Positions 9,521 to 46,205 of a stretch of 64,000 nucleotides of DNA are shown here, in pieces. Below the pieces are notes generated by a model. It saw nothing but the letters and a program-made list of their open reading frames with translations. It was not told where the DNA came from and did not search any database. Where the stretch lies: NCBI GenBank assembly GCA_963735035.1, contig CAVTJJ010000003.1, positions 256,001 to 320,000 of the forward strand, given 5' to 3'. Each line of letters starts with the position of its first letter. The first letter of the stretch is position 1. The DNA is from an uncultured candidate division Zixibacteria bacterium (GTDB taxonomy: Bacteria; Zixibacteria; MSB-5A5; GN15; FEB-12). The position numbers were made by a program, and so were the translations under genes.

Positions 9521-10975
9521 TCACGGACAGTCGGGAAGGCCTCGCGCAGGTCCTGTGATAAACAAATAATCGATCAGCGCCGAAATGTCGCCGATCGTTA
9601 TGGCGTCACAAGTAGGAATGACGCCACCGGACAAGTTTATATCTCCCTCGCCCAAACACACTATATTGGTGCCGATACCGGAGGAGATACAGGTACCGGT
9701 GATGAACTTGGCGTCGATCATCACGCTGACGTCACCTATAGTTGGTTCATCGCCACCTGTGCCGTTGGCATCGCCAACCCGGCCCATACAGCAGTTGATC
9801 TTGACGGAGACCGGAGCGGACCAGGCTGTTTCTGCTCCAAACGCATCTTTGACCTTGACCTTGACCTCGTAATTGCCAAAATCAGTCCACGAGTGCGAGG
9901 CGAGTGCCGAAGCTCCGGAATTGTATGGGCCGAGCCAGCCGGTGTTCTGACCATCACCCCAGTCCCACCAATAGTATATCATGTTGGCTTCGGGATCGGT
10001 GGCCTCTGAAGCGAATTGCATGTTCTGAAGTGGCAGCCTTTGTCCGCCGCCCATCACTATCGAAGGAGTTGGCGGAGCGGTATTGGCCGGCACGCCGTTG
10101 CCCACTGCAACATGGACTCTGACTTGATTGTTGCCCAGCCAGTCAAGGGTGGTAAGCATGTCGAGCGCCGGCACAACTCGTTGGCCAGACGCTATGATTT
10201 CCGGTTCATAATACGGAACCAGCACATCCTCCGGGTACTCCGCGGGAGCGCCACCCATTTTGGCCCTATAGCCGGCATCTATGTACACGCAGGGGAAAAC
10301 CGTCATGTAAGCCGATTGAATGCGGGCATGGGCCATCGGGTTAACGTCATCGACCATGGCCACGTAGAACATCGGATACTCACCTGACTGATCTATCACG
10401 TGGAGCGCGGACCGCGCTCTTGTGCAGTATGGTCACCAGGTGGCCGTTGCTTCCTCGATAAAAATCGGGTGCGTATATGGCGAAGTCGCCTGGCTGTGCC
10501 CCACTACACCGGGCGTAGCGGCCGCTGCGACATCGGCGTAGCGAGCCTGAAAATACCGTCCGTTGGGCGGATCGGCGTCAGTCAGTACCGTCTGCGACCT
10601 GAACGCCACACCAATCGCCTTAAGGTTGTCCGGGAAGATCTCACCTATGGCCGTCGTGGAGGCGTCCCACGTGCCGGTCAGGTAGACCTTTTCGCCATCG
10701 AGCAGGTTGAAGTTTGAGACCAGAGGAAAGTCAAGAAAACCGTTCTGATAGAAGTCGTCGTTTAGATCGGTCCACCGGGCCATCGGCTCTACGAGGAACA
10801 CTCGTATGGTCCCGGAATAGCTTGCCTCACCATTATCCGGGGCGAGCAAAGGAGGGTTGTCTGGAGGCGTTCCGGGGTTATCGGAACCGCTTTCACAAAC
10901 TTTCCACTCTCCCGCTGTCGCCACAGATACAAAAATGAGGATCAAGCCTACGATTAGTAGGGGGTAACGTTGCAT
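9521..10975 (-). CDS. Probable selenoprotein (484 aa, U181): signal peptide, Omp28/thioredoxin-like domain with UxxC, PKD domain, dockerin-like tail
   Basis: ORFs 10433..11071 and 9521..10399 are in the same frame. The junction reads IEEATATW-TGA-PYCTRARSALHVIDQSG. ATG at 10975 (MQRYPLLIVG). PKD motif YWWDWGDG...SHSW..GNYEVKVKVKD. Hairpin follows the TGA. Confidence 0.88.
10403..10419 (-). promoter_or_regulatory. SECIS-like hairpin 13 nt after the in-frame UGA at 10433-10435
   Basis: mRNA GAGCGC-GGUCC-GCGCUC, a perfect stem with a GGUC-containing loop. Confidence 0.7.
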
Positions 10976-11135
10976 CGGATCCTTTCGCGTACTCTTTGCG
11001 GAGTTTACCTGTCCTCTTGAATCACATGTCGATAATATACCAAAATAGTCGCAAAATGCAACATCCGACATTGGTCATCAGCCATCGGGTTATTGAGGAT
11101 AACCAACCGAAGGAATAGATATCCGCAACCGCGCT

Positions 11136-12380
11136 TCAGAATCGAACCGTTACCCCGGCGTTCACTGAGAAGTCATCGTATTTGTAAACTAGGACGGTCG
11201 AGTTGTTGTCAGTGTAGTCGGCCTGGATACTTGGCTCCAAAGTTACCCCGTTACCCATTTGAAGGGGGCACTGAACTTTGATATCGAACCGCCGACGCCA
11301 ATCGGTGCGGTCCTGAGCGTACAGCAGGCTCACGGTCGATCTCAGCTCCTGAAGAAATCCGAATGGCTTTAGCTCTCGTTCTACGGTGCGCAGGTGTTCC
11401 CGCTCCCAGAACCCGGCCGAGAAGGTGGTAATCAGTCGGGGAATCAAATATGTCTTCAACTTCAGGACGACGGCCTGTCCGGCGAAATCGCCCAACCAGG
11501 GCGATAGATAGCCGGTCGAGTATCCGTAGATAACCGCATTCTTGTCATGATCGAGAAACTGCCGGTTCGAATAAGTCAACGCCAGACCGGTCTTCCTCCC
11601 GAGAGATCGGGAGATGCGCGGCGAAATGTAGAATGATCTAAGTCGGTCAGTAAGAAGGATCGAATACTGTTCGCCGGGAAGGATTTCGGCACGGGTCACC
11701 ATCGTGTCTGGAACACCGAACTCCGGGACGCCCTTGATTAATTTCAAGGGATTTACGTACTGGTACCTTCCGGTCGAGTATCCCAACTCCAGATCTATAG
11801 CGTACGAGCCAAACAGGGTCGTATTGGCTCCAGCCGTGACATCCATTTTCTTTCGGTCAATTACACCATCGATCTTGTACTGCGTGGATGATAGTGAAAG
11901 TCCCGCCCGCAATTGCGTTCGGGAACTCAGGCGGTAGCCCACGCCGAAGGTACCGTCATATACGTCGCCGGTGATTTCATTGGGGTTTAGAGAGTTCGAA
12001 CTCGCGGTGGTATGGTGATACCGACGCTTCTTGAAATTGCCTTCGAGGTAGGTCGAGATACGCGACGAATCGCGGAACGGTATGATCGTCAAGCCGCCGC
12101 CGTAGACCAGGTTGCTTAGATTGATGAACTTGCTGTAGTACTTATGCTCTACTACCAGATTCAGACGGGCAAACCTGAGCGGGTACCAGTTCGCATCAAC
12201 AGTGGAAGTGCTGTATCCGTCCTCCTTCGAGGTCGAGTCCGAAAAGAGATTGCTCGTTGAACTTGCGGACGTCGAGACTTTGACATCAAAGTTAGCGGCA
12301 TTCACCAATGGTGTGACAAAGGCGATTGTCAGGATTAAGAACAATCCGAGGAGCGCGCGGAGAGCTTTCATTAGAAACAC
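11136..12380 (-). CDS. Putative outer-membrane beta-barrel protein
   Basis: Signal peptide (start possibly 12371), alternating beta-strand pattern, C-terminal GVTVRF Bam-type signature. Confidence 0.75.
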   Translation of the reverse strand: MFLMKALRALLGLFLILTIAFVTPLVNAANFDVKVSTSASSTSNLFSDSTSKEDGYSTSTVDANWYPLRFARLNLVVEHKYYSKFINLSNLVYGGGLTIIPFRDSSRISTYLEGNFKKRRYHHTTASSNSLNPNEITGDVYDGTFGVGYRLSSRTQLRAGLSLSSTQYKIDGVIDRKKMDVTAGANTTLFGSYAIDLELGYSTGRYQYVNPLKLIKGVPEFGVPDTMVTRAEILPGEQYSILLTDRLRSFYISPRISRSLGRKTGLALTYSNRQFLDHDKNAVIYGYSTGYLSPWLGDFAGQAVVLKLKTYLIPRLITTFSAGFWEREHLRTVERELKPFGFLQELRSTVSLLYAQDRTDWRRRFDIKVQCPLQMGNGVTLEPSIQADYTDNNSTVLVYKYDDFSVNAGVTVRF

Positions 12381-12790
12381 ACTCCTCCGGCGCAGCCACC
12401 ACCAGCGCCGAGTCCCCCGCCTAAACCCAGGCCTGAGCCGAAACCGGTATCGAAGTCGAGACGATCTTCACTGACAGCCCGGGCGGCAAATTTGCGACGA
12501 CCGAAGGCGTCCTTGCAGTGGAGATGGGCCTGCATACCGACCCCGGTATTGGTGTTTGTGAACATCTGCGACACCTGAAGCTGGCCGACTGAGGCCGATA
12601 CAAAGCCGTGGCGCTCAACTTCATCGGGGATGCCGTCGGTATCGTCATCGGGGGCGTTGTCGTCGAACCCATCACCGTCACAGTCAGTGAAAACAGTCGG
12701 TCCGGAAGGAAGAACTGAGGGGGCGGAGGCAAAGACCAAAATGGCTGCCAGCCAGAATGACGCCAGAATGGCGGAAAGCTTGTAGGGCAT
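12371..12790 (-). CDS. Small secreted protein with Asp-rich DxDGDG Ca-binding loops and Gly-rich/Cys C-terminus
   Basis: Signal peptide, DCDGDGFDD..DDDTDGIPD, ends GGCAGGVCF. Stop overlaps the start of the barrel gene. Confidence 0.7.
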   Translation of the reverse strand: MPYKLSAILASFWLAAILVFASAPSVLPSGPTVFTDCDGDGFDDNAPDDDTDGIPDEVERHGFVSASVGQLQVSQMFTNTNTGVGMQAHLHCKDAFGRRKFAARAVSEDRLDFDTGFGSGLGLGGGLGAGGGCAGGVCF

Positions 12791-12887
12791 CGGCGATTTC
12801 TTTCTAAACCAGATCGTTATCGTCTCAGGGCCACAAGCGTCTAATCTACGTCAATTCTGTGCGTTCTGTCAATATGCGAACTGGTCG

Positions 12888-14441
12888 CTACAAACATGCC
12901 GGCAGGCCCATAGATGAGCCGGTTATAAACAGATAATCGATCAGGATTGAGATGTCGCCGATCGTAATATTGTCACACGTGGGGTTTGATCCTCCCGACT
13001 GGTTTATGTCTGCCTCGAGTAGACACCCTATGATACCATCACAAGAACCAGTGATAAACTTGGCGTCGATCAGCACGCTGACATCGCCTATGGTTGGTTC
13101 ATCATCTCCGCTGTTGTTGGAGTCGCCAACCCTGCCGACACAGCATCCCACCTGGCATTGCCCGGCCTCACCGTAAACCCAGAATGCCGGATATTTGGTC
13201 ATGCCAAGAACGGCGGCATCATAACAGACCCCGGAAGGCTGAGTCCTGATCCAGTTCTCGCAGGCCCCGGCGGTGGGACTATTGAGTTCCCGTCCGGGCC
13301 CCGGAGCCCCGGAGTGATGGAATTCCAGCCCGATGAAAAACGGCTGGTCGACGCAGCATTGACCGTCCGAAAACTGAAATTGACTGGGAACGGAATCGTT
13401 CCCGGTCGCCGAGGTCGTAAACCGAAATAGCTCCACCCCGGGGCCATCACACGAATCCCCGGCCGGAATGATGTCGTAAACGACGATATCCACGTCCTGC
13501 GTCGCGGTATTTCCTCCAAACATGAACCGGAAACCACCAAGTTCGAAGGGATATGGAGAACTACCGCAATCTACTGCCGGATTGTAGAAGGTGTACAGCC
13601 CTTCACCTGCCACAAAACCGCTCAGAAAGACCCAGGAGTTGTCTCCGGTTGTGTTAGTCATGACACAACTGTAGACCGGAGTGCACGGATTGGGATCACA
13701 GTCGGTGTTGTCACCCATGTAGGTTCCTCCCTCCGCTGCACATTCGGCCTGGGTGCTGATCGAGCAAGTACCGAACGGATCGCAGCAGGCGCCCGGTACC
13801 CGACAAAGCCCCGTCTGACCGTCAATCCAGAATGCCGGATAATAGGCGAAGCCGAAATTGATGGCATCGATGAAACTTCCGCCGGTCAGGATGTAGTTCT
13901 CGCATCGGTTCGCCAGAGGCGGGCTGACCGTCTGACGGGCCGGACCCGGCAGGCCGCTGTGTTGAAACTCCAGCCCCATGAAAAAGGGACCGTCGACACA
14001 AAGCGCGCCCGGTAGGAAGTTATAGAGTTGGGGAGTGGAATTGTTTCCCCGCACCTGAATCGACGTGCGAAAAAGCTCCGCGCCCGGCCCCAGGCAGGAG
14101 TCCGAGGAAATGGCATCGTAAGCAACAATGTCGACAATCACCTGACTGGCCGCTCCGCCCATCATGAATTGGAACGAGAGGACCTCATACGGATAGGCGG
14201 CCGTCCCACAATCTTCACTCGGGTTGAAGAACGTATATATTCCCTCGCCGGACACGAACCCTGCCTGAAAGCTCCACGAGGTAGTCGAGGTCACATTGGT
14301 CATGCGGCAGGGCGCGTCAGTATTGAGAGATACGATCGGGGCGGAAGAGACAGAGCCGGTCACCAGCAGAACGATCGCAGCCGCGAAAACACGGCGCGGT
14401 ACCCTCGGACGGACATTCACATACAACGCTCTAAAGAACAC
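12888..14441 (-). CDS. Secreted Cys-rich protein with two tandem ~170-aa domains, a Cys-rich linker and a dockerin-like tail
   Basis: GTG start with GGAGG RBS. Duplicated GFVxGEGxYTFxNP...VDIVxYD...GPGxELFR...FFxGLEF...CEN...YPAFW. Linker GACC...C...CDPNPC. Confidence 0.85.
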   Translation of the reverse strand: MFFRALYVNVRPRVPRRVFAAAIVLLVTGSVSSAPIVSLNTDAPCRMTNVTSTTSWSFQAGFVSGEGIYTFFNPSEDCGTAAYPYEVLSFQFMMGGAASQVIVDIVAYDAISSDSCLGPGAELFRTSIQVRGNNSTPQLYNFLPGALCVDGPFFMGLEFQHSGLPGPARQTVSPPLANRCENYILTGGSFIDAINFGFAYYPAFWIDGQTGLCRVPGACCDPFGTCSISTQAECAAEGGTYMGDNTDCDPNPCTPVYSCVMTNTTGDNSWVFLSGFVAGEGLYTFYNPAVDCGSSPYPFELGGFRFMFGGNTATQDVDIVVYDIIPAGDSCDGPGVELFRFTTSATGNDSVPSQFQFSDGQCCVDQPFFIGLEFHHSGAPGPGRELNSPTAGACENWIRTQPSGVCYDAAVLGMTKYPAFWVYGEAGQCQVGCCVGRVGDSNNSGDDEPTIGDVSVLIDAKFITGSCDGIIGCLLEADINQSGGSNPTCDNITIGDISILIDYLFITGSSMGLPACL

Positions 14442-14640
14442 GACTCACCTCCCTGAGATTTGTACAGGCGCGATGGAACAGAGCCCCGAACGGGGCCCAC
14501 CCGCGCGGAAAGAGCGACCCTCATAGGTCGAGCGACTATCTTACTCTAATGGAATAATATACCAACGATGCCACGATTGTCAAGCTTAGAAAGGAGATAC
14601 CGCCTCTGAGAGCCAACGCGTTGTTACCGGCCACGAAGTA

Positions 14641-14699
14641 TCCCTCGAGGGCATGGCCCACAAGGGATTGATTTGGTGCGGAGGGGGGATCTGAGCCCC
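14641..14699 (-). repeat. Degenerate direct repeat of the tRNA-Leu 3' end plus downstream hairpin (att-like remnant)
   Basis: tccctcgagg..caagggattgatttggtgcggaggggggatctgagcccc aligns with tccctcgagg..caagggattgaaattggtgcggaaggggggatttgaacccc at 18605-18665. Confidence 0.8.
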
Positions 14700-14721
14700 G
14701 TAGCGACTTCGCAGAATTTCG

Positions 14722-14801
14722 TAGGGCGGAACCCCTTGGTGCCTGCTCGCTTTGGCGAGGTTCGGCCGTTCGTATCGGGACTATAAAGGTCCCGACCTAC
14801 A
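14722..14801. repeat. GTAG-type REP-like doublet
   Basis: GTAGGGCGAACC...GGTTCGGCC on the plus strand and GTAGGTCGGGAC-ctttata-GTCCCGA on the minus strand. Confidence 0.6.
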
Positions 14802-14810
14802 AGGCCGTTC

Positions 14811-15344
14811 TCACAAACAGTTCGGCAGACCAAGCGTCGGGCCGGTGACAAACAAATAGTCGATCAAGACTGAAATATCACCAATCGTGATATCTCCCGC
14901 AGTTGGATTCGCACCGCCCGACTGATTGATATCTGCCTCGGTCAGGCATGAGATCACTCCAGTATTACCCGAAATGAACAGCGCGTCGATCAAAACTGAT
15001 ATGTCGCCAATAGTTGGCTCATCACCGCCTGCGCCGTTGGCGTCGCCGACCCTGCCGACACAGCAGCCAAGCGAACCAAGAAGAGGCCAGTACCCCTGAC
15101 TGGATTGAAAGCTCGCAGACGTACCGAAGCCGGCCGCAGCCTGAGCAGCGCTCGCACTGACTTTGAAGCTGGTCGAAGTACCTACCGTTCCTCCGGATGA
15201 AATCACCTGTCGCGTAAACTTGTAATTATCAGCGAGGACAATTCCGGCAACGATGAATAAAACGAGCGCTGTGCGCCAACACAATCTGAATATCTGGTTA
15301 ATCATGCTGTCAACCTTCTTAATAGGTTCTTCTTGTACTAGCAT
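14811..15344 (-). CDS. Small secreted 'VISSGG...QGYW' protein with dockerin-like tail (paralog of 1240..1929)
   Basis: Signal peptide (start probably ~15305), RQVISSGGTVG...QGYW, and a 4-Cys dockerin variant. Confidence 0.85.
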   Translation of the reverse strand: MLVQEEPIKKVDSMINQIFRLCWRTALVLFIVAGIVLADNYKFTRQVISSGGTVGTSTSFKVSASAAQAAAGFGTSASFQSSQGYWPLLGSLGCCVGRVGDANGAGGDEPTIGDISVLIDALFISGNTGVISCLTEADINQSGGANPTAGDITIGDISVLIDYLFVTGPTLGLPNCL

Positions 15345-15425
15345 AACGTCTGGACTGGCTCTTCGGGGAAGCCTTCACGACCTCTCACCTCAGGCCACAA
15401 ATGGAGGGCTACCCTTCAACTACAA

Positions 15426-16580
15426 TCAATGTTCGTCGCTGCATTGCGATGAACTAAACTCTATATCCTTAAAGATCTCAAGTTTTCGGACATCAGTAAC
15501 TCGCTGGCATTCCCAGACAAAAGCAGGACTCCCGTCAAGAATCCCATACGTACCTGCGACGTAATCAAATTCAGCTTCGATCAAGCGGTCTTTCTCATCA
15601 ACTATCATCTTCTCTACATGGAGAATTTGAGTCTTGTCGAGACCAACGGCGCTTCCTAACCTCTTCCACGCTGCTTCAGGTTCGGCTATTCTGGCCTTGA
15701 GGTAGGGTTGGAAATACTCAGAGAACTCGTCTCTAATCACCATTTGAACGAGGTCCTCCTGGATTTCTTGATCGCCGTGCATTGACGTAAAGAAGACGCT
15801 GTCGCCAACTATCTTCTTATAGAAAATGTATCGCACCTCAAGCTTCGGTGCAAGCGCGTGATCAAGAGCGTCGAGACGGCTAAGGACCATAGCTTCGGCA
15901 CCGACTCCAAAGGGACATTGGCTCATTACAAAGAGCTCTATCGTGTTGTCTTTGACTTTCAGAAACGCCGACACCTCCAACTGACCTTCTACCTTCATTG
16001 CTCCCCCGGCGAGGATACGCTGCCCTTCGAGCTTGGTCAACTCGGTAATGTGATCCCCGGTCGCCTCGTACCTAGCTACCGAGTCGACGATGTATGGTTT
16101 CCCATTTTCCACCATGATCGTACCGCGAAGCGTTTGCACATCCCAGATAGGATTCTCCTGAGCGTACTTAATCTTTGCGTTAAGCGACTTGGTCACTTCG
16201 AGAGATAGCTTATCCTTTCCGTTGAGGTTATTGAAATCTACCGAGTTCAATAGTTCAGCGGATTTCTCAGCAGCCCAATAGCCGATGATTTCCATTAGCT
16301 TCGGGTTCTGTATAGCTATTGTGTAAGTTACATCATTCCCACTCTTGGCAATCCGAACAGCGAATGTAGCGTCACCACCATACTTGTTGATGCCCAATAG
16401 TATACTGCTATTAAGAATGGAAAACTCCTGTAGATTCAATCTTAGTTCGTGCCTTCGTGCCAAAGACTGTGAATCACTCGAATTCTCACTGCCTTGCAGT
16501 ACACAAGCAAAGGACAACCAGATAGCGAAGGCGATGATACTGACTATTCTCGTAGTACGTCTATTCGGTATCTTCATCAT
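15426..16580 (-). CDS. Exported protein with C-terminal thioredoxin/DsbA-like domain
   Basis: N-terminal hydrophobic segment. IELFVMSQCPFG, SMHGDQE and GILDGSPAF (cis-Pro-like) motifs. Visibly AT-richer than the housekeeping genes. Confidence 0.7.
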   Translation of the reverse strand: MMKIPNRRTTRIVSIIAFAIWLSFACVLQGSENSSDSQSLARRHELRLNLQEFSILNSSILLGINKYGGDATFAVRIAKSGNDVTYTIAIQNPKLMEIIGYWAAEKSAELLNSVDFNNLNGKDKLSLEVTKSLNAKIKYAQENPIWDVQTLRGTIMVENGKPYIVDSVARYEATGDHITELTKLEGQRILAGGAMKVEGQLEVSAFLKVKDNTIELFVMSQCPFGVGAEAMVLSRLDALDHALAPKLEVRYIFYKKIVGDSVFFTSMHGDQEIQEDLVQMVIRDEFSEYFQPYLKARIAEPEAAWKRLGSAVGLDKTQILHVEKMIVDEKDRLIEAEFDYVAGTYGILDGSPAFVWECQRVTDVRKLEIFKDIEFSSSQCSDEH

Positions 16581-18478
16581 GATGGCCTACAAATACAACA
16601 CTTTAACGTACTAACTGGATTACCGGGGTAGGGTGCGGTACACGATCCAGTGTCGGATGTGATTGTACAGGCTCCCGGCAATCCGGCAATCAGTGTACCT
16701 CCGGCACAAGAACATGCAGATCCATTATTAGATGAGAGACAGATTGCGACGGTAGTCACTGCAGGACCGGTCGGGCCCTGAGGACCGGTCGGGCCCTGAG
16801 GACCGGTCGGGCCCTGAGGACCGGTCGGGCCCTGAGGGCCGGTTGCACCCTGAAGATTGGCATAACTCCCCCAAGTTCCATCGGAGTTCTGAAACCTCAA
16901 ACTGGTTCCAGACCATTGGTGGCTTGGCGCGGGACCAATCAGTCCCGACGGGTTGCCAACCCAAGCGCCGCTGCTATTGATAACCTGCACGCCGGCGACG
17001 GCAATCGCGCCGTTGACGTCGAGCTTTGCTTGGGGAGTAGTAGTGCCTACTCCGATATTCCCGTTGTCATAGATAGTGCCGGAGACCAGCGCGAGGCCAT
17101 CCCATTTCGGCACGTAATTAGCGGTGTTTGAGCCAACTTGCGGATCGGTTTCGGCGCCGCTACCCGTCTCATCGTTTGCTGCTGCCCAAAAGTAGCCATT
17201 CCATTTGATCACTTGCCCACTTGCTGCCGTGTTCTGTGCAAAATCATTGAACAGAATCGTCCCGTTCAGGATTTGTGTGGTTGTCACGGCGTTGGTAGCG
17301 ATGTCGGCTGAACCTATTGTCCCATCAAGAATCTCGGAGGTAGTGACCGCCCCAGGGGCGATTGATAGAGAGGTAACTGCGTCCGCTGCAATCTGTAGGG
17401 AGCCAACGGCATCGGTGGCAATATGTTCACTGGTAACGCCACCAGAGGCAATTGAAAGTGTTGCCACGCCCGATGTGGCCCCGCCAGACAAGCCACTGCC
17501 CGCTACAACTTCGGTGATATCACCACTTCCACTCCCCCCCCCAGCTGCGGTGGTCTGCAGTGTACCATCCGGGAACCTGATGCCATCTACCCCCGGTGTA
17601 CCTCCAATATGCAAAGCCGCCTGAGGGTTGGCTGTGTTGATACCAAATCCGCCGGCCGCGCGCACTATGAACTGGTTGGGGCCTGTCGACCCGAAGACCG
17701 CATTTTGTCCATCTGCCCACACAAAGGAACCATCATGACTTGCGTTAGCCCTAAGACCTGCAGCAAAGGAGTAACTGCCATCGGCCGAGTTGTAACGACC
17801 TCCTGGTACGACTGAGTAATCGCCACCGGCACGATTATCTCGACCACCACTGACAACCGAGTAGTCACCTACCCCGGCTTTTGCTTCAGAACCGGCTTTT
17901 CCGTCAGCGGCAGCTTTTCCGTCAGAACCGGCAGTGTTGTCCAGACCACCACCAACGGTGGAGTAGGCTCCGCTGGCCATGTTCCCCTCCCCGGCCACGA
18001 ACGCCCCCACACCGGAATTGGTGTTGCTTGAGCCAATAGTGGCCTTTCCGCCAATTGACACATCGCCGTCGACGTTGCCTCCACCTGAACCATCCAAACT
18101 GGCAACTCGCGCTGAGTAGGGAACCGATGTCAACCTGGTCCTGGGCTCAATTGTTTCACCACTAATAACCATCTGGAGCCAGCACTCGCTCCCACCAAAA
18201 ACGGTTGGCGGGATCGGCACAGTACTACCCAGAATCACTGTAAATCCGCCATTGCTGACAGTCACTGTGGGGTGTGATTCGGTCCACAAGACGGTACCAC
18301 CAGTTGCCTGGCTGAAAATAGTGAATTGCATTGCCACTGCCCCTTCGACAGGAGTGCCGTCGCCGTTGGTTATGTGTCCCTGGTAACTCATCATCTGTGG
18401 CACTTCGGCCAAAACGGCTGACATCAGTCCGAGGCAGACGACTATTAGTATGGTGGAAAACCCTGCCAGATTCTTCAC
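16577..18478 (-). CDS. Secreted fibre/adhesin-like protein: MSYQG N-domain, beta-roll-like repeats, collagen GXY repeat, Cys-rich tip
   Basis: Signal peptide, VPQMMSYQGHIT, SGAYSTVGGGLDNTA / GDYSVVSGGRDNRA repeats, GFGINTANPQAALHI and GNIGVGTTTPQAKLDV motifs, (GPQGPT)4. Confidence 0.85.
   Translation of the reverse strand: MKNLAGFSTILIVVCLGLMSAVLAEVPQMMSYQGHITNGDGTPVEGAVAMQFTIFSQATGGTVLWTESHPTVTVSNGGFTVILGSTVPIPPTVFGGSECWLQMVISGETIEPRTRLTSVPYSARVASLDGSGGGNVDGDVSIGGKATIGSSNTNSGVGAFVAGEGNMASGAYSTVGGGLDNTAGSDGKAAADGKAGSEAKAGVGDYSVVSGGRDNRAGGDYSVVPGGRYNSADGSYSFAAGLRANASHDGSFVWADGQNAVFGSTGPNQFIVRAAGGFGINTANPQAALHIGGTPGVDGIRFPDGTLQTTAAGGGSGSGDITEVVAGSGLSGGATSGVATLSIASGGVTSEHIATDAVGSLQIAADAVTSLSIAPGAVTTSEILDGTIGSADIATNAVTTTQILNGTILFNDFAQNTAASGQVIKWNGYFWAAANDETGSGAETDPQVGSNTANYVPKWDGLALVSGTIYDNGNIGVGTTTPQAKLDVNGAIAVAGVQVINSSGAWVGNPSGLIGPAPSHQWSGTSLRFQNSDGTWGSYANLQGATGPQGPTGPQGPTGPQGPTGPQGPTGPAVTTVAICLSSNNGSACSCAGGTLIAGLPGACTITSDTGSCTAPYPGNPVSTLKCCICRPS
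16763..16852. repeat. 18-bp tandem repeat, 4 exact copies plus 1 degenerate, encoding collagen-like GPQGPT
   Basis: aggaccggtcgggccctg repeated exactly four times. Confidence 0.9.
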
Positions 18479-18526
18479 GGTCTCTTCTCCTTATATGTGG
18501 CGTAGTCGCGTGTGTACTCTGATGCT

Positions 18527-18555
18527 AGTATAAGCAGGCCGGCCAAATCTGTCAA
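18527..18555 (-). promoter_or_regulatory. Sigma70-type promoter for the islet operon
   Basis: Minus strand TTGACA-17 nt-TATACT. Confidence 0.65.
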
Positions 18556-18638
18556 GACCACTTTGCGCAATTCCATCCAAGGCGTAGTCACCATGCATGA
18601 AAAATCCCTCGAGGATCTTATCCTCAAGGGATTGAAAT

Positions 18639-18723
18639 TGGTGCGGAAGGGGGGATTTGAACCCCCACGGATTACTCCACTACCCCCTCAAGATAGCGTG
18701 TCTACCAATTCCACCACTTCCGC
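18639..18723 (-). tRNA. tRNA-Leu(GAG)
   Basis: GCGGAAG...CTTCCGC-A-CCA acceptor stem, anticodon loop TT-GAG-GG, long variable arm, GTTCAAATC T-loop. Lies in the usual position after secG. Confidence 0.95.
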
Positions 18724-18744
18724 ATCCATTGTTCGTTGTATTTG

Positions 18745-18815: not shown

Positions 18816-18827
18816 AGGCTTGTGTTG

Positions 18828-19277: not shown

Positions 19278-19293
19278 TTGACCAAACCTCCGC

Positions 19294-36894: not shown

Positions 36895-37062
36895 CGCAGG
36901 GTATGGTACCCCAAGCGGGGCGCGGGTTCAACTAGAAAAGATGGGGGGCTTTCGCCAGGGAGGAAGCCAAATACGATCGGTATCTTAAGAGTGATCGGCA
37001 GGGTTCCACCCCTGCCGGAAACAGAACGGCAGGCACGGAGGCCTGCCGATCAGGAAGCTGCG

Positions 37063-38016: not shown

Positions 38017-38192
38017 GGATATATCCTTAGTTGGAACCGGAAGAGCGGCACTCGTCCGATCCCAAAGCTTGCCAGCCGCTTAAATCGCATAATAGCAGGC
38101 GGGGTTGTCAAAACTCAACATGTTTTTTGGCAGAAATCCGGCAGAGATGGAACCCTGCCGATTGAGTTTGGGAGCAGATATCTGAAGTATGT

Positions 38193-38224
38193 CGGCAGAT
38201 GTGGACATCTGCCGGGCACGGTTA
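38193..38224. repeat. 32-bp palindromic direct repeat, copy 1
   Basis: cggcagatgtggacatctgccgggcacggtta, identical to 38937..38968. Confidence 0.9.
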
Positions 38225-38256
38225 ACGCACAACGGCTCCAGCTTTGAGCGTCCCAG

Positions 38257-38874
38257 TTACCGGTTATTCAGCGAGGCCCAGATGTACCAGCAGGCGACCG
38301 TACGGTACGGCCGGAATCGTTCGCCGAACTCCTCAAAATCGGTATCGTTACGATCGACCCCGTAGAGGTTGCAGATCCCCTTCTGAATGCCGAGATCACC
38401 AGCCGCGAAAATGTCAAGCCGCCCCAGCGTGAACATCAGATACATCTGCGCGCTCCACGGCCCCAGACCCTTGACCTGAGTGATGGTTTCGGCGATTTCT
38501 TCGTCGGTCATGCGGGGGAAGCGGCGCACGTTTAAGAAGCCGGAATCGATCTTCTCGATCAGGTCACGAACGGCCCGGATCTTGGCAAAGGACAAACCGG
38601 CTTCGCGGAATGAGGCGTCGTCGAGCTTGCGAAATGCTGTGATCGATGCCGTCCTGCACCCGGCCGCTCGGCATACTTTCTTGTAGATGGCGTCCGCTAC
38701 GGTGCCGGAGAGTTGCTGTCCGACGATGATTCTGACGAAGGCATTGAACCCGATTTGTTGTTTATGGTAGTCGAGGCGGCCAACCTGTTTGATGACGGCG
38801 GCCAGTTTCTTGTCGGTCTTTTTGAGGTGGGCGATGGCCAGGTCGATTTCGCGCTTGCGGTCGGTGGTAGTCAT
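38257..38874 (-). CDS. alkA: DNA-3-methyladenine glycosylase II (HhH-GPD)
   Basis: IVGQQLS, VKGLGPWSA, GDLGI and RPYRT motifs. Confidence 0.88.
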   Translation of the reverse strand: MTTTDRKREIDLAIAHLKKTDKKLAAVIKQVGRLDYHKQQIGFNAFVRIIVGQQLSGTVADAIYKKVCRAAGCRTASITAFRKLDDASFREAGLSFAKIRAVRDLIEKIDSGFLNVRRFPRMTDEEIAETITQVKGLGPWSAQMYLMFTLGRLDIFAAGDLGIQKGICNLYGVDRNDTDFEEFGERFRPYRTVACWYIWASLNNR

Positions 38875-38936
38875 GGGAGTCTATACGGATGTTTAGTATT
38901 GGAGGATATCACATTATGTTTACGACATTGCAAACC

Positions 38937-38968
38937 CGGCAGATGTGGACATCTGCCGGGCACGGTTA
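38937..38968. repeat. 32-bp palindromic direct repeat, copy 2
   Basis: Identical to 38193..38224. Followed by a related palindrome at ~38987-39036. Confidence 0.9.
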
Positions 38969-39041
38969 TCACAATCGTTCTTTCCTGCGGCAGACGAGGA
39001 CCCCCGATCAAGTCGGGGGCAGGCTCTGCCGGCCACATCCA

Positions 39042-40355
39042 TCACCCTTCGTACACCACCTTGCCGCCAAGGATCGTGCGGTACACTTTCCCGGACAGCG
39101 TCCAGCCGATAAACGGCGAGTTGCACGATTTCGACTTGAAATTCTCCGCCTTCACCTTCCACTTCTTGTCCGGGTCGATGATCGTAATGTCCGCCGGTGA
39201 CCCGACCGCCATCGTTCCGCCCTGAAGGCCGAAGATTCGCGCCGGATTCGAAGTCATCTTCTGGATCGCATCGGCCCAGCCGAGATACCCCTTGTCGATC
39301 AGATACGTCTTCACCAGACCAAGTGTAGTCTCGAGACCGATCATACCTGACGGGGCCTGGTCGAACTCGCCGTCCTTGTCCTCGCTAGAATGCGGGGCAT
39401 GATCGGAGGCGATGCAGTCGATTGTGCCGTCGATCAGACCTTCGATGACCGCGTCGAGATCGTCTTTCGTGCGCAACGGCGGATTGACCTTCAGGTTGGT
39501 GTTGTACTCCTTGCCGATCTCATCGTCGGTCAGCACAAAGTAATGCGGGCAGGTTTCGGTCGTGACCTGGATCCCTTCGCGCTTGGCGGCGCGAACCGCC
39601 TCGATCGCCCGCCGCGTCGTGATATGCTGAATGTGCAAACGTGAGCCGGTGAGACGGCAGAGGGCGATATCACGCAGGACCGCAATTTCTTCGGCGGCGG
39701 CCGGACGGCCTTTCATCCCCACACGCGCCGACTGCGCCGATTCGTTCATCACCCCACCCTCGCAGAGGAACGAATCTTCGGCGTGCTGCATGACGGGGAT
39801 ATTGAACATCTTGGCGTATTGCAGCGCCCGGCGCATGATCTCCGGGTTCTGGACATAGTTGCCGTCGTCGGTAATAGCAATCGCGCCCATCTTAACCAGG
39901 TCGCCGATCTCCGCCAATTCCAGACCTTCGATATTCTTGGTGATCGCGCCCGCCACGAACACGCGGGCGGAGGCGTCTTTCGCGCGGTCCTGAACGAACC
40001 TGACCGTCTCCTGACTGTCGATTCGCGGTCGGGTGTTGGGCATGCAGCAGACCGAAGTAAATCCGCCGGCCGCGGCGGCCTCGCATCCCGAAGCGATAGT
40101 CTCGGCACCTTCCTTGCCCGGCTCGCGAAGATGAACGTGCACGTCAATCAGTCCCGGCACGACAATCTTGCCTTCGGCGTCAATAACACTTCCAGGCTCA
40201 ATCGATTTGAGCGTGCGTCGAAGCGCCGCCGTTTCGATTTCGATTCCGGCAATGACGCCGTCTTTGATGAGGACGCAAGCGTCCTGGCCGAATCCGAGCG
40301 CAGGGTCGATTACACGCCCGCCGGTAATGACCGTATCGAATTTCTTGCTGGACAT
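39042..40355 (-). CDS. pyrC: Dihydroorotase (type I)
   Basis: DVHVHLREPG, MPNT, KVNPPLR and ASDHAPH motifs. Confidence 0.96.
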   Translation of the reverse strand: MSSKKFDTVITGGRVIDPALGFGQDACVLIKDGVIAGIEIETAALRRTLKSIEPGSVIDAEGKIVVPGLIDVHVHLREPGKEGAETIASGCEAAAAGGFTSVCCMPNTRPRIDSQETVRFVQDRAKDASARVFVAGAITKNIEGLELAEIGDLVKMGAIAITDDGNYVQNPEIMRRALQYAKMFNIPVMQHAEDSFLCEGGVMNESAQSARVGMKGRPAAAEEIAVLRDIALCRLTGSRLHIQHITTRRAIEAVRAAKREGIQVTTETCPHYFVLTDDEIGKEYNTNLKVNPPLRTKDDLDAVIEGLIDGTIDCIASDHAPHSSEDKDGEFDQAPSGMIGLETTLGLVKTYLIDKGYLGWADAIQKMTSNPARIFGLQGGTMAVGSPADITIIDPDKKWKVKAENFKSKSCNSPFIGWTLSGKVYRTILGGKVVYEG

Positions 40356-40358
40356 TGT

Positions 40359-41291
40359 TTACGCCTCCTCTTTCCGACCGGAGAGCAGATAGAGCACTGC
40401 CATCCGGACTGCCACGCCGTTAGTCACCTGATCGAGAATTACCGATTTGTCGCCGTCGGCCACATCCGTTGAAATTTCCACTCCCCGATTCATCGGTCCA
40501 GGGTGCATGATTGTGTAGTTGCGATTCAGCCGTTTGAGTCGATCCCGGTTGATACCGAACAGGTTCGTATATTCACGCAGTGAGGGGAACATGCCGGCTT
40601 TCTGGCGCTCCAGTTGGATGCGCATGACATTGACCACATCGGCTCCTTCAAGAGCTTCGTCGACATTGGTATATACGTCACACTCGAACTCTTCCACCCC
40701 GTGTGGGATCAGGGTCGACGGCCCGCAGAGCGCCACCGACGCTCCCATGGTCTTGAGACCCCAGATGTTAGAGCGAATCACGCGGGAGTGCATGACATCG
40801 CCGACCAGCACTACGCGCAGGCCTTTCAGCTTGCCGTACTTGTGCCGAATCGTGAGCATGTCGAGAAGAGCCTGCGTCGGGTGCTCATGGGTTCCGTCGC
40901 CGGCATTGATGATGTTGGCGTCCATGCACTGAGTCAGGAAGTAGGGCACGCCCGATGAGGCGTGACGCACTACCACCATGTCGATCTTCATAGCTTCGAT
41001 ATTCTGGACGGTGTCGCGAAGCGATTCGCCCTTGGATACCGACGAGGTCGCCTTCGAAAAATTGATCGAATCGGCCGACAAACGTTTCTCGGCCAGTTCA
41101 AACGATATCCGGGTGCGAGTAGACGCTTCGTAGAAGAGGTTCAGCACGGTGAGACCGCGCAGGGTCGGCAGCTTCTTGATCTCGCGTTCGAGGACTTCGC
41201 GGAAAGTCTCGGCGGCGTCGAGTATGGCGACAATGTCTTCCTGTGGGACACCCTCGAGCCCGAGCAGATGGCGTGACGAAAGACGGCTCAT
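40359..41291 (-). CDS. pyrB: Aspartate carbamoyltransferase catalytic subunit
   Basis: FYEASTRT, HEHPTQALLD and MHPGPMNRG motifs. Confidence 0.97.
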   Translation of the reverse strand: MSRLSSRHLLGLEGVPQEDIVAILDAAETFREVLEREIKKLPTLRGLTVLNLFYEASTRTRISFELAEKRLSADSINFSKATSSVSKGESLRDTVQNIEAMKIDMVVVRHASSGVPYFLTQCMDANIINAGDGTHEHPTQALLDMLTIRHKYGKLKGLRVVLVGDVMHSRVIRSNIWGLKTMGASVALCGPSTLIPHGVEEFECDVYTNVDEALEGADVVNVMRIQLERQKAGMFPSLREYTNLFGINRDRLKRLNRNYTIMHPGPMNRGVEISTDVADGDKSVILDQVTNGVAVRMAVLYLLSGRKEEA

Positions 41292-41911
41292 CGCTTGCCT
41301 CCTTTCCGGGCGGCTTTCGCGGCCGGTTTCTTCTTGCCGGTCGGAGCTTTGGTTGGCGAAGCTTTCTCTGTTGCGCCGGAAATCACGCTGACCTGATCCT
41401 TCCCTTCCTTTTCTTTCACTTCGAGCACTACCTGATCGGAGCGCGACGTCGGGATGTTGATTCCGACAAAATCGGCTTTGATCGGCAGTTCACGGTGACC
41501 CCGATCAACCAGCACTGCCAGTTGGATCGTGCGCGGGCGGCCGAAATCGACGATGTGATCCAGGGCCGCGCGAATTGTCCGCCCAGTGAACAGGACGTCG
41601 TCGACCAGAATGATATTCTTGTCCTGAACCGGGAAGAGAATGTCGGTGCGCTGGATAATGGGCTGATCCAGCTTCTGATGGACGTCATCCCGGTACAGCG
41701 AGATGTCCATCAGCCCTACCGGTACGGCGACCCCTTCGAGCTCTTCAATAAGGCCGGCGATGCGCTTGGCCAGGAAGGCTCCACGCGTCAGAATGCCGAC
41801 GATGGCGATTGAATTGACGTCATTGTTGTGCTCCATGATCTCGTGAGAGATCCGCGCCAGGGCGCGAGCGATCTTCTTGTCATCGAGAATGACCTTGCTA
41901 TTAGCCGTCAA
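41288..41911 (-). CDS. pyrR: Pyrimidine attenuation regulator / UPRTase PyrR
   Basis: DISLYRDD, LVDDVLFTGRT and DRGHRELPI motifs. Confidence 0.96.
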   Translation of the reverse strand: MTANSKVILDDKKIARALARISHEIMEHNNDVNSIAIVGILTRGAFLAKRIAGLIEELEGVAVPVGLMDISLYRDDVHQKLDQPIIQRTDILFPVQDKNIILVDDVLFTGRTIRAALDHIVDFGRPRTIQLAVLVDRGHRELPIKADFVGINIPTSRSDQVVLEVKEKEGKDQVSVISGATEKASPTKAPTGKKKPAAKAARKGGKR

Positions 41912-42010
41912 AACGGCACCTCCGTGTGTATCTGTGAAATAGGATTAATTCCGAGTTACTCGGCAGATTACGGCATGGATTGGAAGAAAAATCAGAGATC
42001 ATTAAGCTTT

Positions 42011-42046
42011 CCACCTTTGGTGACCTCTCTGGATCACCTTAAAAGG
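42011..42046 (-). promoter_or_regulatory. PyrR-binding RNA leader
   Basis: mRNA CCUUUUAAGGUGAUCCAGAGAGGUCACCAAAGG contains the UCCAGAGAGG PyrR-binding core in a stem-loop upstream of pyrR. Confidence 0.8.
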
Positions 42047-42081
42047 TCGGATCGATCCGGCCAAGGCCGGAAGTCGGCGTG

Positions 42082-42109
42082 AGTATAAGCGATCCCTCGA
42101 CGCTGTCAA
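42082..42109 (-). promoter_or_regulatory. Sigma70 promoter of the pyr operon
   Basis: Minus strand TTGACA-16 nt-TATACT. Confidence 0.6.
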
Positions 42110-42157
42110 GCGGCCGAAACAATTTTGTTTAGATATGTGAAAAGAAATTGCCGGGGC

Positions 42158-43651
42158 TCAGCCCTCTGAGAGCATGCTCGAAAGGCGGGGGTCGCCGAAA
42201 AGCTCGGCTACGGACAGCGGCAATAATTCCCCGCGACGAGTGAGATACAGTACCCGATCGCACACCTGGCGGATCACGTCGCCGTCGTGGCTGATAACCA
42301 ACTGACCCAGATTCATGGACTTGAGAGAGTGCGACAGGGCCATGAACCGGCCGACCCCTTCACCGTCGAGACCGGCGGTGGGTTCATCGAAAATGATGAT
42401 CGACGGCTCCATAGCCAGAACGGCGGCAAAGGCCAGGCGGCGCTTTTCACCAGCCGAAAGCGAGAAGGGATCACGGTCGGCGTAGCGTGCAGGGTGCAAG
42501 CCGACTAGTTCGAGAAATTCACCGATTTCATCGGGGGTGAGCTTGCGGCCGAGGTTCTCCGGGCCAAAGCCTACTTCGTGGGCGCACGTTTCGAGAAAGA
42601 ACTGCCGCTCCGGCTGCTGCAGAACCAGGGCCAACTCACCGCGAATATCTTTCAATTTGAGCGGCTGGCCGGTTTTGTTGAGATAGACGATTTCCCCTTT
42701 CGATGGAGCCGCCAGTCCGGCCATTAGCAGACCGATCGTGCTCTTCCCCGCTCCAGTAGGACCGATCAGGCCGACCGTCTCCCCCGCCTTGAGCTCAGCC
42801 GATAGCCTCTCGAAGACCACAGGCGACATCGGCCAGTTGAAAGTGACATCGTTCATCTTTGCCGCGTCCAATGAGGAGGACTTGTCACCCGCACTCTTGG
42901 CTCGCTTGGGTATTCGAACCTGCATTGCCGATGTATCCGGCACGGTCAAACCGGCCAGGGTACAGAGGCGACTGTCACTAAGCAGCGCAGTCGGGGCGCC
43001 ATCGGCGACAACCGTACCGGAATCGAGAACCACAAGACGAGAATACTGCCGTGCCACCTGGGCGCTCTGGGTAATGCGAATCTCGATCAGGCGACGGTCT
43101 TCTTTATGGAGTCGTTCGAGCTCTGCTGACAGAATCAATCGCCCGGCCTGATCGAGAAACGAGTCGGGTTCATCAAGAAGCAGCACCGCCGGTTGCTGTA
43201 CCATCACCGACGCCAGCGCCACGCGTTGCTTTTCTCCACCGGACAGGTCGGATGTGAGGCGTTGACACAGGTGCTCGATGCCAAACTGTTTAGCGGCCTT
43301 GGATACCTCGGCTTCCATCTCGGCCTGGGGCATCGCCCGATTTTCAAGCGCGAAGGCGATCTCTTTCTCCACCAGCGTGGCCACTATCTGGTTGTCTGGA
43401 TTTTGAAAGAGAATGCCCACGCGGGTATCGGGGGTGCCGTCATGAGTATGGCCGTCGACAGTGATTTTTCCCCGGCCGGGTTTGATCAACCCGGCAATCA
43501 GTTTGACGAGGGTCGACTTGCCCGACCCGTTGCGCCCCATAACACACAGTGATTCACCGTCGCGCAGGCGCAGGGTGACGTCGTGTAAGGCCGCCTCCGT
43601 ACGGCGCGGGTACCAGTAGCTGATGTGGTCGAGGTCTATCATAGGATCCAT
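42158..43651 (-). CDS. Fused double-ATPase of an ECF-type transporter
   Basis: Two Walker A motifs (GRNGSGKS, GPTGAGKS), FQNPDNQ, LSGGEKQR and LSAGEKRR. Confidence 0.9.
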   Translation of the reverse strand: MDPMIDLDHISYWYPRRTEAALHDVTLRLRDGESLCVMGRNGSGKSTLVKLIAGLIKPGRGKITVDGHTHDGTPDTRVGILFQNPDNQIVATLVEKEIAFALENRAMPQAEMEAEVSKAAKQFGIEHLCQRLTSDLSGGEKQRVALASVMVQQPAVLLLDEPDSFLDQAGRLILSAELERLHKEDRRLIEIRITQSAQVARQYSRLVVLDSGTVVADGAPTALLSDSRLCTLAGLTVPDTSAMQVRIPKRAKSAGDKSSSLDAAKMNDVTFNWPMSPVVFERLSAELKAGETVGLIGPTGAGKSTIGLLMAGLAAPSKGEIVYLNKTGQPLKLKDIRGELALVLQQPERQFFLETCAHEVGFGPENLGRKLTPDEIGEFLELVGLHPARYADRDPFSLSAGEKRRLAFAAVLAMEPSIIIFDEPTAGLDGEGVGRFMALSHSLKSMNLGQLVISHDGDVIRQVCDRVLYLTRRGELLPLSVAELFGDPRLSSMLSEG

Positions 43652-43660
43652 TAACAGGTT

Positions 43661-43770
43661 GTGTCAGTTCCTGCGATCCGCCTTTGGCGGATCGCAGGAA
43701 CTGACACACTCGGCGTCAGGTCACACCACAAAATCGCTGAAAGCGATTTCGTGGCAGGACCTGACGCAAC
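43661..43770. repeat. Two adjacent long palindromes (REP-like)
   Basis: GTGTCAGTTCCTGCGATCCGCC-ttt-GGCGGATCGCAGGAACTGACAC (22-bp perfect stem) and GCGTCAGGTC...GACCTGACGC, which recurs at 51508. Confidence 0.8.
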
Positions 43771-43792
43771 CATTAGTCAATCACTCATAAAG

Positions 43793-43824
43793 AGAGCCGG
43801 CGTCTAAGTAAGAGACGCCGGCTC
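43793..43824 (-). terminator. Hairpin/terminator after gcvPB
   Basis: GAGCCGGCGTCT / AGACGCCGGCTC stem. Confidence 0.6.
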
Positions 43825-43844
43825 AATTTGGCAAGTCGGATAAC

Positions 43845-45308
43845 TTACGCTATGTAATTCACGTCCAGATTGCGGACCGCCAGAGTCTCGTCCAGCCGCC
43901 TGACCGGCGTGTTGTGAGGGGCCGACGTCACAATATTAGGATCGGTTTCCGCCTCACGGGCGATTCGGATCATAATCTCGGCGAAAGCTTCGAGCGTCTC
44001 GATAGTCTCCGTCTCGGTCGGCTCGATCATCAAAGCCTCGTGGACGATCAACGGGAAATAGTTGGTCGGGGCGTGGACGCCGAAATCGAGTAGCCGTTTG
44101 GAAATGTCGGAAGTCTTGACGCCGAGCTTCTTCTGCCGATCACCCGACAGCACAAACTCGTGCATGCAGTGGCGATCGTACGGCAGGTCGAAATCCTTCT
44201 TGAGCAGCTCTTTCAGGTAGTTGGCATTGAGCACGGCGTTTTCAGATGCTTCGCGCAATCCTTTGCCACCCAGGTTACGGATGTAAGCGTAGGCCCGGAC
44301 CATATTGGCGAAATTGCCGTAGAACGTGTGCAGGCGACCGATTGACTTCGGACGGTCGTAATTGAAAAACAGCTTACCGCCGTCACCCTTCTCCAACACT
44401 GGGAAGGGAAGGAACTTTTCGAGTTCCTTAGTAACACCAACTGCGCCCGCGCCCGGCCCGCCGCCGCCGTGCGGGGTCGAGAAGGTCTTGTGCAGGTTGA
44501 AGTGCATGATGTCGAAACCGACATCGCCGGGACGGAAAATACCCATGTTGGCGTTCAGGTTGGCGCCGTCCATATAGAGCAGGCCGCCGGCCTTGTGCAC
44601 TACCCGGGCGATTTCCTCGATATTGCTTTCGAACAGCCCCAGCGTATTCGGATTGGTCATCATCATGCCGGCGACTTCGTCGTCGAGCGCCGCCGCGACC
44701 GCTTCGGGAGAAATAATACCCCGCTCGTTCGATTTGATCTCGACCGTCGTGAAACCGATCGAAGTCACCGACGCCGGGTTGGTACCGTGGGCCGAATCCG
44801 GGATAATGATCTTATGCCGCTTGTTGCCTTTGTCCAGATGGTAGGCGCGCATAATCAACAGACCGGTGAACTCACCGTGAGCGCCGGCTACCGGCTGGAG
44901 CGAAATTGCCGGGAAACCGGAAACTTCGCGCAGGAAACCGATCAATTCCCACATCAACTGCAGACTACCCGTCGACCGACTACACGGAGTGAGTGGGTGA
45001 TGCTCCTGAAAACCACGAAGCGACGCGGCCACGTCGTTCATCTTGGGGTTGTACTTCATCGTACACGATCCCAGCGGGTAAAAGCCCTTGTCGATGTGGT
45101 GGTTCTTGGTCGACAGATTGACAAAGTGACGGACCACTTCCGGCTCAGCCACTTCGGGCAGAGCGGCGTCTTGGGAACGCCTAAACCGCTCCGGTATGGT
45201 CTTCAAGATGTCAGCTTCGTTGTGTTTGGTCGCGGGAAGGGTGTACCCCTTGCGGCCCGACTGGGATTTCTCGTATATCAGAATCTTTTCTTCCACGGCT
45301 CTATCCAA
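43845..45308 (-). CDS. gcvPB: Glycine decarboxylase subunit 2
   Basis: PLGSCTMKYNP, AHGTNPAS and HFNLHKTFSTPHGGGGPG motifs. Confidence 0.97.
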   Translation of the reverse strand: MDRAVEEKILIYEKSQSGRKGYTLPATKHNEADILKTIPERFRRSQDAALPEVAEPEVVRHFVNLSTKNHHIDKGFYPLGSCTMKYNPKMNDVAASLRGFQEHHPLTPCSRSTGSLQLMWELIGFLREVSGFPAISLQPVAGAHGEFTGLLIMRAYHLDKGNKRHKIIIPDSAHGTNPASVTSIGFTTVEIKSNERGIISPEAVAAALDDEVAGMMMTNPNTLGLFESNIEEIARVVHKAGGLLYMDGANLNANMGIFRPGDVGFDIMHFNLHKTFSTPHGGGGPGAGAVGVTKELEKFLPFPVLEKGDGGKLFFNYDRPKSIGRLHTFYGNFANMVRAYAYIRNLGGKGLREASENAVLNANYLKELLKKDFDLPYDRHCMHEFVLSGDRQKKLGVKTSDISKRLLDFGVHAPTNYFPLIVHEALMIEPTETETIETLEAFAEIMIRIAREAETDPNIVTSAPHNTPVRRLDETLAVRNLDVNYIA

Positions 45309-45326
45309 AATAGTTTCGACTCAGCC

Positions 45327-46205
45327 TTACTTCTTGTCGCCGGCGGGAGTCGGGTTCTTCAATTTCTTTATCTGTCCTTCAGCGTAATCCTTGTCCTCGG
45401 AGTCAGGGTAACGCTGAATGTATGATTCGAATATCGATATGGCCTGGGCGGTGTCGCCCTTCTTGACGTTCACAATCGCCTGCATCAGCAAGGCATCGCG
45501 ACCGTGAAACGTCGTAAACTCTTGCTCGATCTTCTTGTAAGCGTCGATAGCTTCGTCATATTTCTTGTCGCGACGGAGAAAATCGGCAAAGGCTATCCGT
45601 GCTTCGCCCGAGAGCGAATCGTGCAGATCGCCGGTCTCGATCACTTTGGTGTACCAGTTCTGAGCATCTGTCGCCTGACCGCGATACTTGTACTTGTCCG
45701 CAATCTGAAGATCGAGAGACCGGTCGGTAGCGGCGCTCGCCTTAGCAAGCATGTCGTTCAGAGTGCCGATACCCTTGGAAAAATCTTCGAATGTCTTGAG
45801 ATATTCCTGCGTCGGCTCATACCCTACCAGGCGGTCAACTTCCACACCGCTCTTGTTTACCAGCATTGACGTCGGAAATGCCTTGGCATAGTAACGCGCA
45901 GCGACTGCCGAATCCTTTTCGGGATTTACTCTGGCCAGAATCATCTGATTGGAGAAGAACTTGATTGTAGTATCATTTATGAACACGACCGTGTCCAGCG
46001 TCTTGCACCACGTTCACCAATCGGTGTAGAATTCGATCACCACGAATTGGCTGTCTTTAGCCGCTTTCAAGGCATCGTCGATCTGAGAGTAGTACGGCAC
46101 GTAGCCGGGCTTGGTGACCAGTGAAGTCGACGGCGTTTCGCCGGCGAGGCAAACCGTCGCAACCACTGACGTCAGCAGCAGAGTCGCAAAAATCAGAAGA
46201 CGCAT
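45327..46205 (-). CDS. Probable selenoprotein (292 aa, U64): exported thioredoxin-like domain with UxxC plus C-terminal TPRs
   Basis: ORFs 46014..46271 and 45327..45986 are in frame. The junction reads VVIEFYTDW-TGA-TWCKTLDTVVF. AFPT cis-Pro motif, signal peptide from ATG 46205, TPR-like helices. Confidence 0.9.
45980..45997 (-). promoter_or_regulatory. SECIS-like hairpin 16 nt after the in-frame UGA at 46014-46016
   Basis: mRNA UGGACAC-GGUC-GUGUUCA, a 7-bp stem with a GGUC loop. Confidence 0.65.

Follow-up and report, generated by a model that had tools for sequence, protein, structure and literature searches.

Probable SECIS hairpins of the general bacterial type follow in-frame UGA codons in two UxxC genes of an uncultured Zixibacteria bacterium

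The stretch of DNA analyzed here, which we call the window, comprises 64,000 nucleotides (positions 256001-320000 of contig C3) of the six-contig, 3.61-Mb genome of an uncultured candidate division Zixibacteria bacterium. Two genes on its minus strand, gene 1 and gene 2 (Table 1), contain an in-frame UGA codon at the first position of a UxxC motif, where U would be selenocysteine (Sec). The translations of both begin with signal-like hydrophobic segments. The only Pfam matches of gene 1 are PKD_4 and PKD, and its stop is taken to be the UGA at 9523..9521; the start, this stop and the dockerin-like label were read from the translation and are putative. Gene 2 matches the Pfam Thioredoxin family (PF00085, residues 72-157, 5.3e-11), with the U of its UxxC motif inside the match, and also TPR families. 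The first-pass annotation of this DNA had pointed to a hairpin with a GGUC loop after each of the two UGAs, and both hairpins are indeed present. In gene 1, 19 nt separate the UGA from the loop of a hairpin that can be drawn with 6 bp and a 5-nt loop or with 7 bp and a 3-nt loop. In gene 2 the interval is 23 nt and the hairpin has 7 bp and a 4-nt loop.

Table 1. Features of the two UGA-containing genes and of related loci. Nucleotides (nt) within hairpins are numbered from the U of UGA; ORF, open reading frame; SECIS, selenocysteine insertion sequence.
Feature	Position	Strand	Remarks
Gene 1, putatively exported protein	9521..10975	-	Signal peptide, W-U-P-Y-C domain, PKD domain, dockerin-like C-terminus; from ORF and translation
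Gene 1, probable Sec-UGA codon	10433..10435	-	TW-U-PYC; read 10435..10433
Gene 1, probable SECIS upper hairpin	10403..10419	-	GAGCGC-GGUCC-GCGCUC; GGU at nt 23-25; stem covaries among orthologs
Gene 2, putatively exported thioredoxin-fold protein	45327..46205	-	W-U-T-W-C, C-terminal TPR repeats; from ORF translation and Pfam
Gene 2, probable Sec-UGA codon	46014..46016	-	D-W-U-T-W-C; read 46016..46014
Gene 2, probable SECIS upper hairpin	45980..45997	-	UGGACAC-GGUC-GUGUUCA; loop nt 27-30; encodes L-D-T-V-V-F
Two small Cys-rich ORFs	46237-46623 and 46624-47103		Between the large ORFs that flank gene 2
SelD gene	C3:544642-545568	-	In-frame TGA; GGCCGG-GGUUC-CUGGCC; GGU at nt 23-25
DUF1573/OS_HP2 predicted selenoprotein gene	UGA at C6:406706	-	P-G-U-G-C-T; outside the window; locus L020/L133

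The genes of the selenocysteine machinery are present in this genome. A tRNA-Sec with a UCA anticodon was found both by ARAGORN and with Rfam RF01852 (67.6 bits, gathering score 47). The selB match (327.8 bits) spans model positions 1-575 of 581, selA (511.5 bits) adjoins selB, and a profile match to selD contains one in-frame TGA. The matches to tRNA-Sec, SelA, SelB and SelD all lie above the curated cut-offs.

The two hairpins were compared with what has been published on bacterial SECIS elements. As outlined in PMC13188914, the model used by bSECISearch has an upper stem of 4-16 bp capped by 3-9 loop nucleotides. The first or second of these is a G, usually with G or U as the next base; the spacing is 16-37 nt and the energy -7.5 kcal/mol or lower. 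The loops of the window hairpins, GGUCC and GGUC, their stem and loop lengths and their spacing of 19 and 23 nt all fit. The isolated gene 1 hairpin folds at -10.7 kcal/mol, and 1 of 200 shuffles folds as well. The model further asks for an in-frame UGA that is aligned with Cys in homologs, as is the case for gene 1 and gene 2. For the E. coli element, the conserved positions given in PMC8659212 are G23 and U24 of the loop and a bulged U17, with the upper stem-loop starting 11 nt from the UGA; the loop G and U are described there as conserved SelB contacts. The record of E. coli K-12 fdhF itself shows a UGA followed by a hairpin with a GGUC apical loop at nt 22-25. The window hairpins resemble that element in lying immediately 3′ of the UGA and in having the identical apical loop (at nt 23-26 and 27-30). 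They differ from it in their stems, which are perfect helices of 6-7 bp, and in a spacing that exceeds that of fdhF by 1 to 5 nt. The gene 1 site shows no evident extended lower helix, and at gathering thresholds Rfam called no SECIS family in the window, only a tRNA.

Relatives of the source genome provide a natural comparison between forms of the same genes with and without the UGA. Each query was run on 81 genomes, namely the source genome and 80 others of the same order, and at most 30 of the loci found by each query were retrieved. Gene 2 had a match in 80 of the 81. Homologs of gene 1, which are common in the order, occurred in 47, with TGA in some and a Cys codon in others. The 30 fetched gene 2 loci contain 31 orthologous sites, of which 19 have TGA and 12 have TGT or TGC; the 30 gene 1 loci gave 37 sites, with TGA at 20 and TGT or TGC at 16. 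The remaining gene 1 row, which visual inspection identifies as a Sec form with a GGUCC hairpin, is misaligned by one codon and was not counted. A uniform criterion was applied to all forms: a hairpin counted when at least 5 bp of its stem were contiguous and its loop had 3-6 nt, included GU and began at nt 13-35. On this basis the gene 2 hairpin is present in 19/19 TGA forms and in 4/12 Cys forms, and the gene 1 hairpin in 15/20 TGA forms (counting one, with GUACAA as its loop at nt 35, that is probably spurious) and in 0/16 Cys forms. The hairpin accompanies the UGA and erodes once the codon has changed to Cys. The four hairpin-bearing Cys forms of gene 2 (L077, L093, L097 and L099), which retain a GGUC or GGUU hairpin, look like carriers of relic SECIS elements left by a recent replacement of Sec by Cys.

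The stems themselves show constraint at the RNA level. Columns 25-35 do not vary among the 19 TGA forms of gene 2, even at the third positions of the ACG GUC GVG-type codons (here ACG GUC GUG), and the same third positions vary in the Cys forms, which use other codons. Pair 21:36 changes from G-C to C-G in four sequences, and 90.8% of the cells are paired, as against 25.7-49.3% in slid registers. The gene 1 stems have wholly different sequences, such as GAGCGC, UAACGC, AACCAG, GACGCC, AAUGCC and GCAAGG. Even in one fixed register, two-sided changes occur at four of the six pairs; the covariation score of 0.326 (shuffled mean, 0.201) was reached by none of 500 shuffles. A register shift of 1-2 nt in some sequences lowers the paired fraction to 67.5%.

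How often such a hairpin would follow a UGA by chance could be judged from the genome itself. The 7,229,914 nt of both strands contain 1,214 hairpins that have a GGTC loop and a stem of at least 5 bp, and TGA stands at no preferred distance from them genome-wide. Pairs of TGA and hairpin at 10-30 nt amount to about 453 among about 126,585 TGA trinucleotides, or about 0.4% per TGA. In a comparison with true stops, which the first-pass annotation had proposed as a check, a hairpin starts 10-30 nt after 5/862 likely true TGA stops, 2/515 TAA stops and 8/794 TAG stops, and the five TGA cases appear to be ordinary gene ends. To these stops we compared TGAs flanked by coding sequence. A first read-through filter based on codon usage gave 2,487 candidates and was useless, as antisense frames also score well. 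It was replaced by a dicodon filter that takes the best of six frames and keeps a TGA only when the frame in which it lies scores best for coding both before and after it. This left 117 TGAs, of which two are followed by a GGTC hairpin, and these are exactly the two window sites. Given the background rates, the presence of such a hairpin at both of two UxxC sites chosen beforehand is far beyond chance.

We consider it very likely that the two hairpins act as canonical bacterial SECIS elements for Sec-UGA codons, each within a UxxC redox motif, and to this extent the first-pass annotation, which had called them SECIS-like, is upheld. A ribosome that reaches the in-frame UGA would find just downstream a hairpin whose apical G-G-U SelB would contact with its mRNA-binding end. 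SelB carrying Sec-tRNA(Sec) would then allow selenocysteine to be inserted in place of termination. The expected products are two signal-peptide-bearing, UxxC thiol-oxidoreductase-like selenoproteins, probably exported. Read in this way, the window adds to the record of an uncultured lineage two selenoprotein genes that are well supported and have a SECIS element each, and in annotation both genes should be called read-through selenoproteins and not truncated ORFs.

Several observations weigh against this assignment. The gene 2 hairpin alone folds at -6.8 kcal/mol; 5 of 200 shuffles fold as well, and the value falls short of the -7.5 kcal/mol that the published model asks for. In its 60-nt context the value is -13.9 kcal/mol, with a z-score of only -0.90. 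Neither stem is interrupted, and neither has a counterpart of the bulged U17 of E. coli; the general model, as outlined, does not include this bulge. Five of the 20 TGA forms of gene 1 fail the uniform criterion. Visual inspection shows stems of 4 bp, an internal mismatch or a GGGCC loop in these five. The genomes compared are also kin and not independent, so that the Sec/Cys contrasts are descriptive and would overstate their weight if taken as a statistical test.

The first-pass annotation had gone further and read the shared C-GGUC loop as a consensus specific to this lineage. Such a loop would be read by a SelB of altered specificity. This reading draws on the exact GGUC at both window sites and in 19/19 TGA orthologs of gene 2, together with GGUCY in 9/21 Sec forms of gene 1 (by eye). 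It does not agree with the same GGUC loop in E. coli K-12 fdhF, nor with the variety of loops in the order, where SelD has GGUUC in the source genome and AGUUU in most relatives, the DUF1573 gene described below has GGU or GGC, and orthologs of gene 1 have GGUCC, GGUCU, GGUAC, GGUGC, CGUGC or AGUU. All that the lineage conserves of the loop is GU or GG. The selB match is full-length and gives no hint of an unusual SelB. Because fdhF has the same loop, because the published model already covers it and because loops in the order are diverse, a lineage-specific consensus is not supported, and we regard it as very improbable. The shared GGUC loop is an instance of the general rule of SelB recognition and no invention of the lineage, and these two elements leave existing knowledge of SECIS recognition unchanged.

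Two other explanations would deny the hairpins a role in recoding altogether. In principle, they could be by-products of conserved protein sequence without any function in the RNA. The gene 2 hairpin does lie on a conserved peptide, and six of its eight pairs lack a two-sided change (three never vary and three vary on one side only). Against this, the synonymous positions are frozen in the TGA forms only, and Cys forms with similar peptides use other codons and have lost the hairpin in 8/12 cases; compensatory swaps occur in both genes, and the gene 1 stems pair despite having wholly different sequences. This makes a mere by-product a very improbable origin, more so than a lineage-specific loop. 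It might also be supposed that a suppressor tRNA decodes the UGAs as Cys or Trp, or that they are stops, marks of pseudogenes or assembly errors, with hairpins that are unrelated to them. Two in-frame TGAs that resemble errors or nonsense mutations do exist in this genome, in tgt and in an LPG_synthase_TM gene. Those TGAs, however, are unique to the genome, are aligned to other residues than Cys and have no GGU hairpin, whereas the window UGAs recur in many genomes and are aligned with Cys. Insertion of Cys by a variant UGA-reading tRNA, which the first-pass annotation had offered as an alternative, finds no support, since tRNA-Sec is the only tRNA with a UCA anticodon among the 49 tRNAs found. 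Of the explanations considered here, we give this last group the least credence.

With the hairpins taken as SECIS elements of the general type, we asked how well the motif lists the selenoproteins of the genome, as had been proposed for it. It does so in part. The strict GGUC loop recovers two of the four supported selenoprotein genes, and a scan for it is not a valid way of listing the selenoproteome because it misses SelD and DUF1573 of the same genome; neither of these has strict GGUC, yet in this genome the loops of both begin with GGU. The SelD orthologs have TGA in 30/30 fetched cases and a stem of the form GGCCRR/YYGGCC, with loops of GGUUC, AGUUU or GGU. The GU of the loop stands at nt 24-25 (G24/U25) in most of them and is shifted one nucleotide further in the variants with a GGU loop. 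A broader motif, with a stem of at least 6 bp, a loop starting with GGU and a start at nt 13-51, is found after 4 of the 117 coding-flanked candidates, and these four are SelD, gene 1, gene 2 and DUF1573. Since the motif was framed after the four genes had been seen, the 4/4 recovery is partly circular. The motif also follows 781/126,583 TGA trinucleotides overall, and without the coding filter it yields 112 long read-through frames, nearly all junk; it finds the four genes only in combination with that filter. A relaxed hairpin with GU in the loop and a stem of at least 5 bp had no discriminating power as a stand-alone filter, as it follows 14,432 of the 126,585 TGA trinucleotides (11.4%) and 15/117 candidates. 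We estimate that a 6-7 bp stem with GGU holds too little information for a covariance-model search of 7.2 Mb, and that a covariance model derived from a single gene family would chiefly capture the sequence of that gene.

The search for further selenoproteins was extended with Pfam to the best 60 of the 115 read-through candidates outside the window. A domain extends across the TGA in three of these 60, DUF1573, LPG_synthase_TM and TGT. As the 55 lower-scoring candidates were left out of the scan, the list of four supported genes may be incomplete. A looser set of 749 candidates held no additional convincing selenoprotein. Scans of the source genome with PF00085 (seven matches, of which one, the Thioredoxin match of gene 2, contains a TGA), PF00384 (one match, none with TGA) and PF00578 (11 matches, none with TGA) added nothing to the list. 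The in-frame TGAs of tgt (C6:314797) and of the LPG_synthase_TM gene (C6:271322) lie inside otherwise intact genes. They occur in the source genome only, five relatives have D/Q/E and L/F/T at these positions, and no GGU-loop hairpin follows either of them; both were rejected as selenoproteins and are probably nonsense mutations or assembly errors.

The DUF1573 gene differs from the other three in the position of its hairpin. Its product has PF07610 across the UGA and scores 61.4 bits with NF041425 (OS_HP2_seleno), below the model cut-off of 100. OS_HP2 was first reported in PMC1976440, and DUF1573 (pfam07610, with a UGC motif) is, like Thioredoxin (pfam00085, UxxC), among the selenoprotein families listed in PMC9312934. 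A match was found in 80 of the 81 genomes, mostly with one TGA. The hairpin GCUGUC-GG(U/C)-GACAGC, at nt 40-54 with the loop 42 nt after the UGA, is present in 22/22 TGA forms and is kept at 1/29 Cys-codon sites. Its loop is GGU in 18 of the TGA forms and GGC in four, and the source genome has GCUGUC-GGU-GACAGC. This G-loop lies outside the 16-37 nt spacing of the consensus bacterial SECIS. Between the UGA and the hairpin, nt 13-21 can pair with nt 32-39 to form a spacer helix (81.8% paired) with strong compensatory change at two pairs (UA 9, AU 5, GU 3, GC 2 at one, and UA 12, GC 6 at the other). In the alignment, the apical loop of the spacer helix has no conserved G. The helix may serve to shorten the effective distance to the G-loop. 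We therefore put forward, as a tentative suggestion that we consider somewhat less likely than not, that in this order SelB may tolerate a G-loop hairpin lying far past the usual spacing if a covarying spacer helix folds the intervening mRNA and, separately, that gene 1, with UPYC, PKD and a dockerin-like tail in a putatively exported protein, may represent a selenoprotein family that is not yet listed.

Attempts to place gene 1 in a known family were unsuccessful. Neither Pfam nor NCBIfam offers a family for its UPYC domain; the sole NCBIfam row is insignificant, at 16.1 bits against a cut-off of 300. No thioredoxin-family profile extends across the U of its UxxC motif, and the PDB matches, to CPYC glutaredoxins, are not significant (E 0.19 and 0.56). 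It could not be assigned to any of the selenoprotein families listed in the source cited above. For a Cys-form ortholog, an Atlas language-model look-up led to Omp28 (PF11551) clusters with a score of 0.93, which we take as a lead only. The family often occurs in tandem copies that mix Sec and Cys forms.

Gene 2, for its part, fits the Pfam Thioredoxin family across the UGA and differs from the listed thioredoxin UxxC selenoproteins in its additional C-terminal TPR repeats. The large ORFs that flank it, at 43845-45308 and 46967-48322 on the minus strand, we presume from their translations to encode the glycine dehydrogenase subunits gcvPB and gcvPA.

The genome seems to carry a pyrrolysine system besides the selenocysteine system. 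A cassette at C2:19500-23300 (locus L198, 1-3714) contains pylC, pylD, a tRNA with a CUA anticodon and pylSn. The matches to pylC, pylD and pylSn are above the curated cut-offs, and the tRNA, at C2:21792-21864, was called by ARAGORN only, with no Rfam call at the gathering score. TAG is nevertheless a common stop codon in this genome, ending 794 of 2,171 long ORFs.

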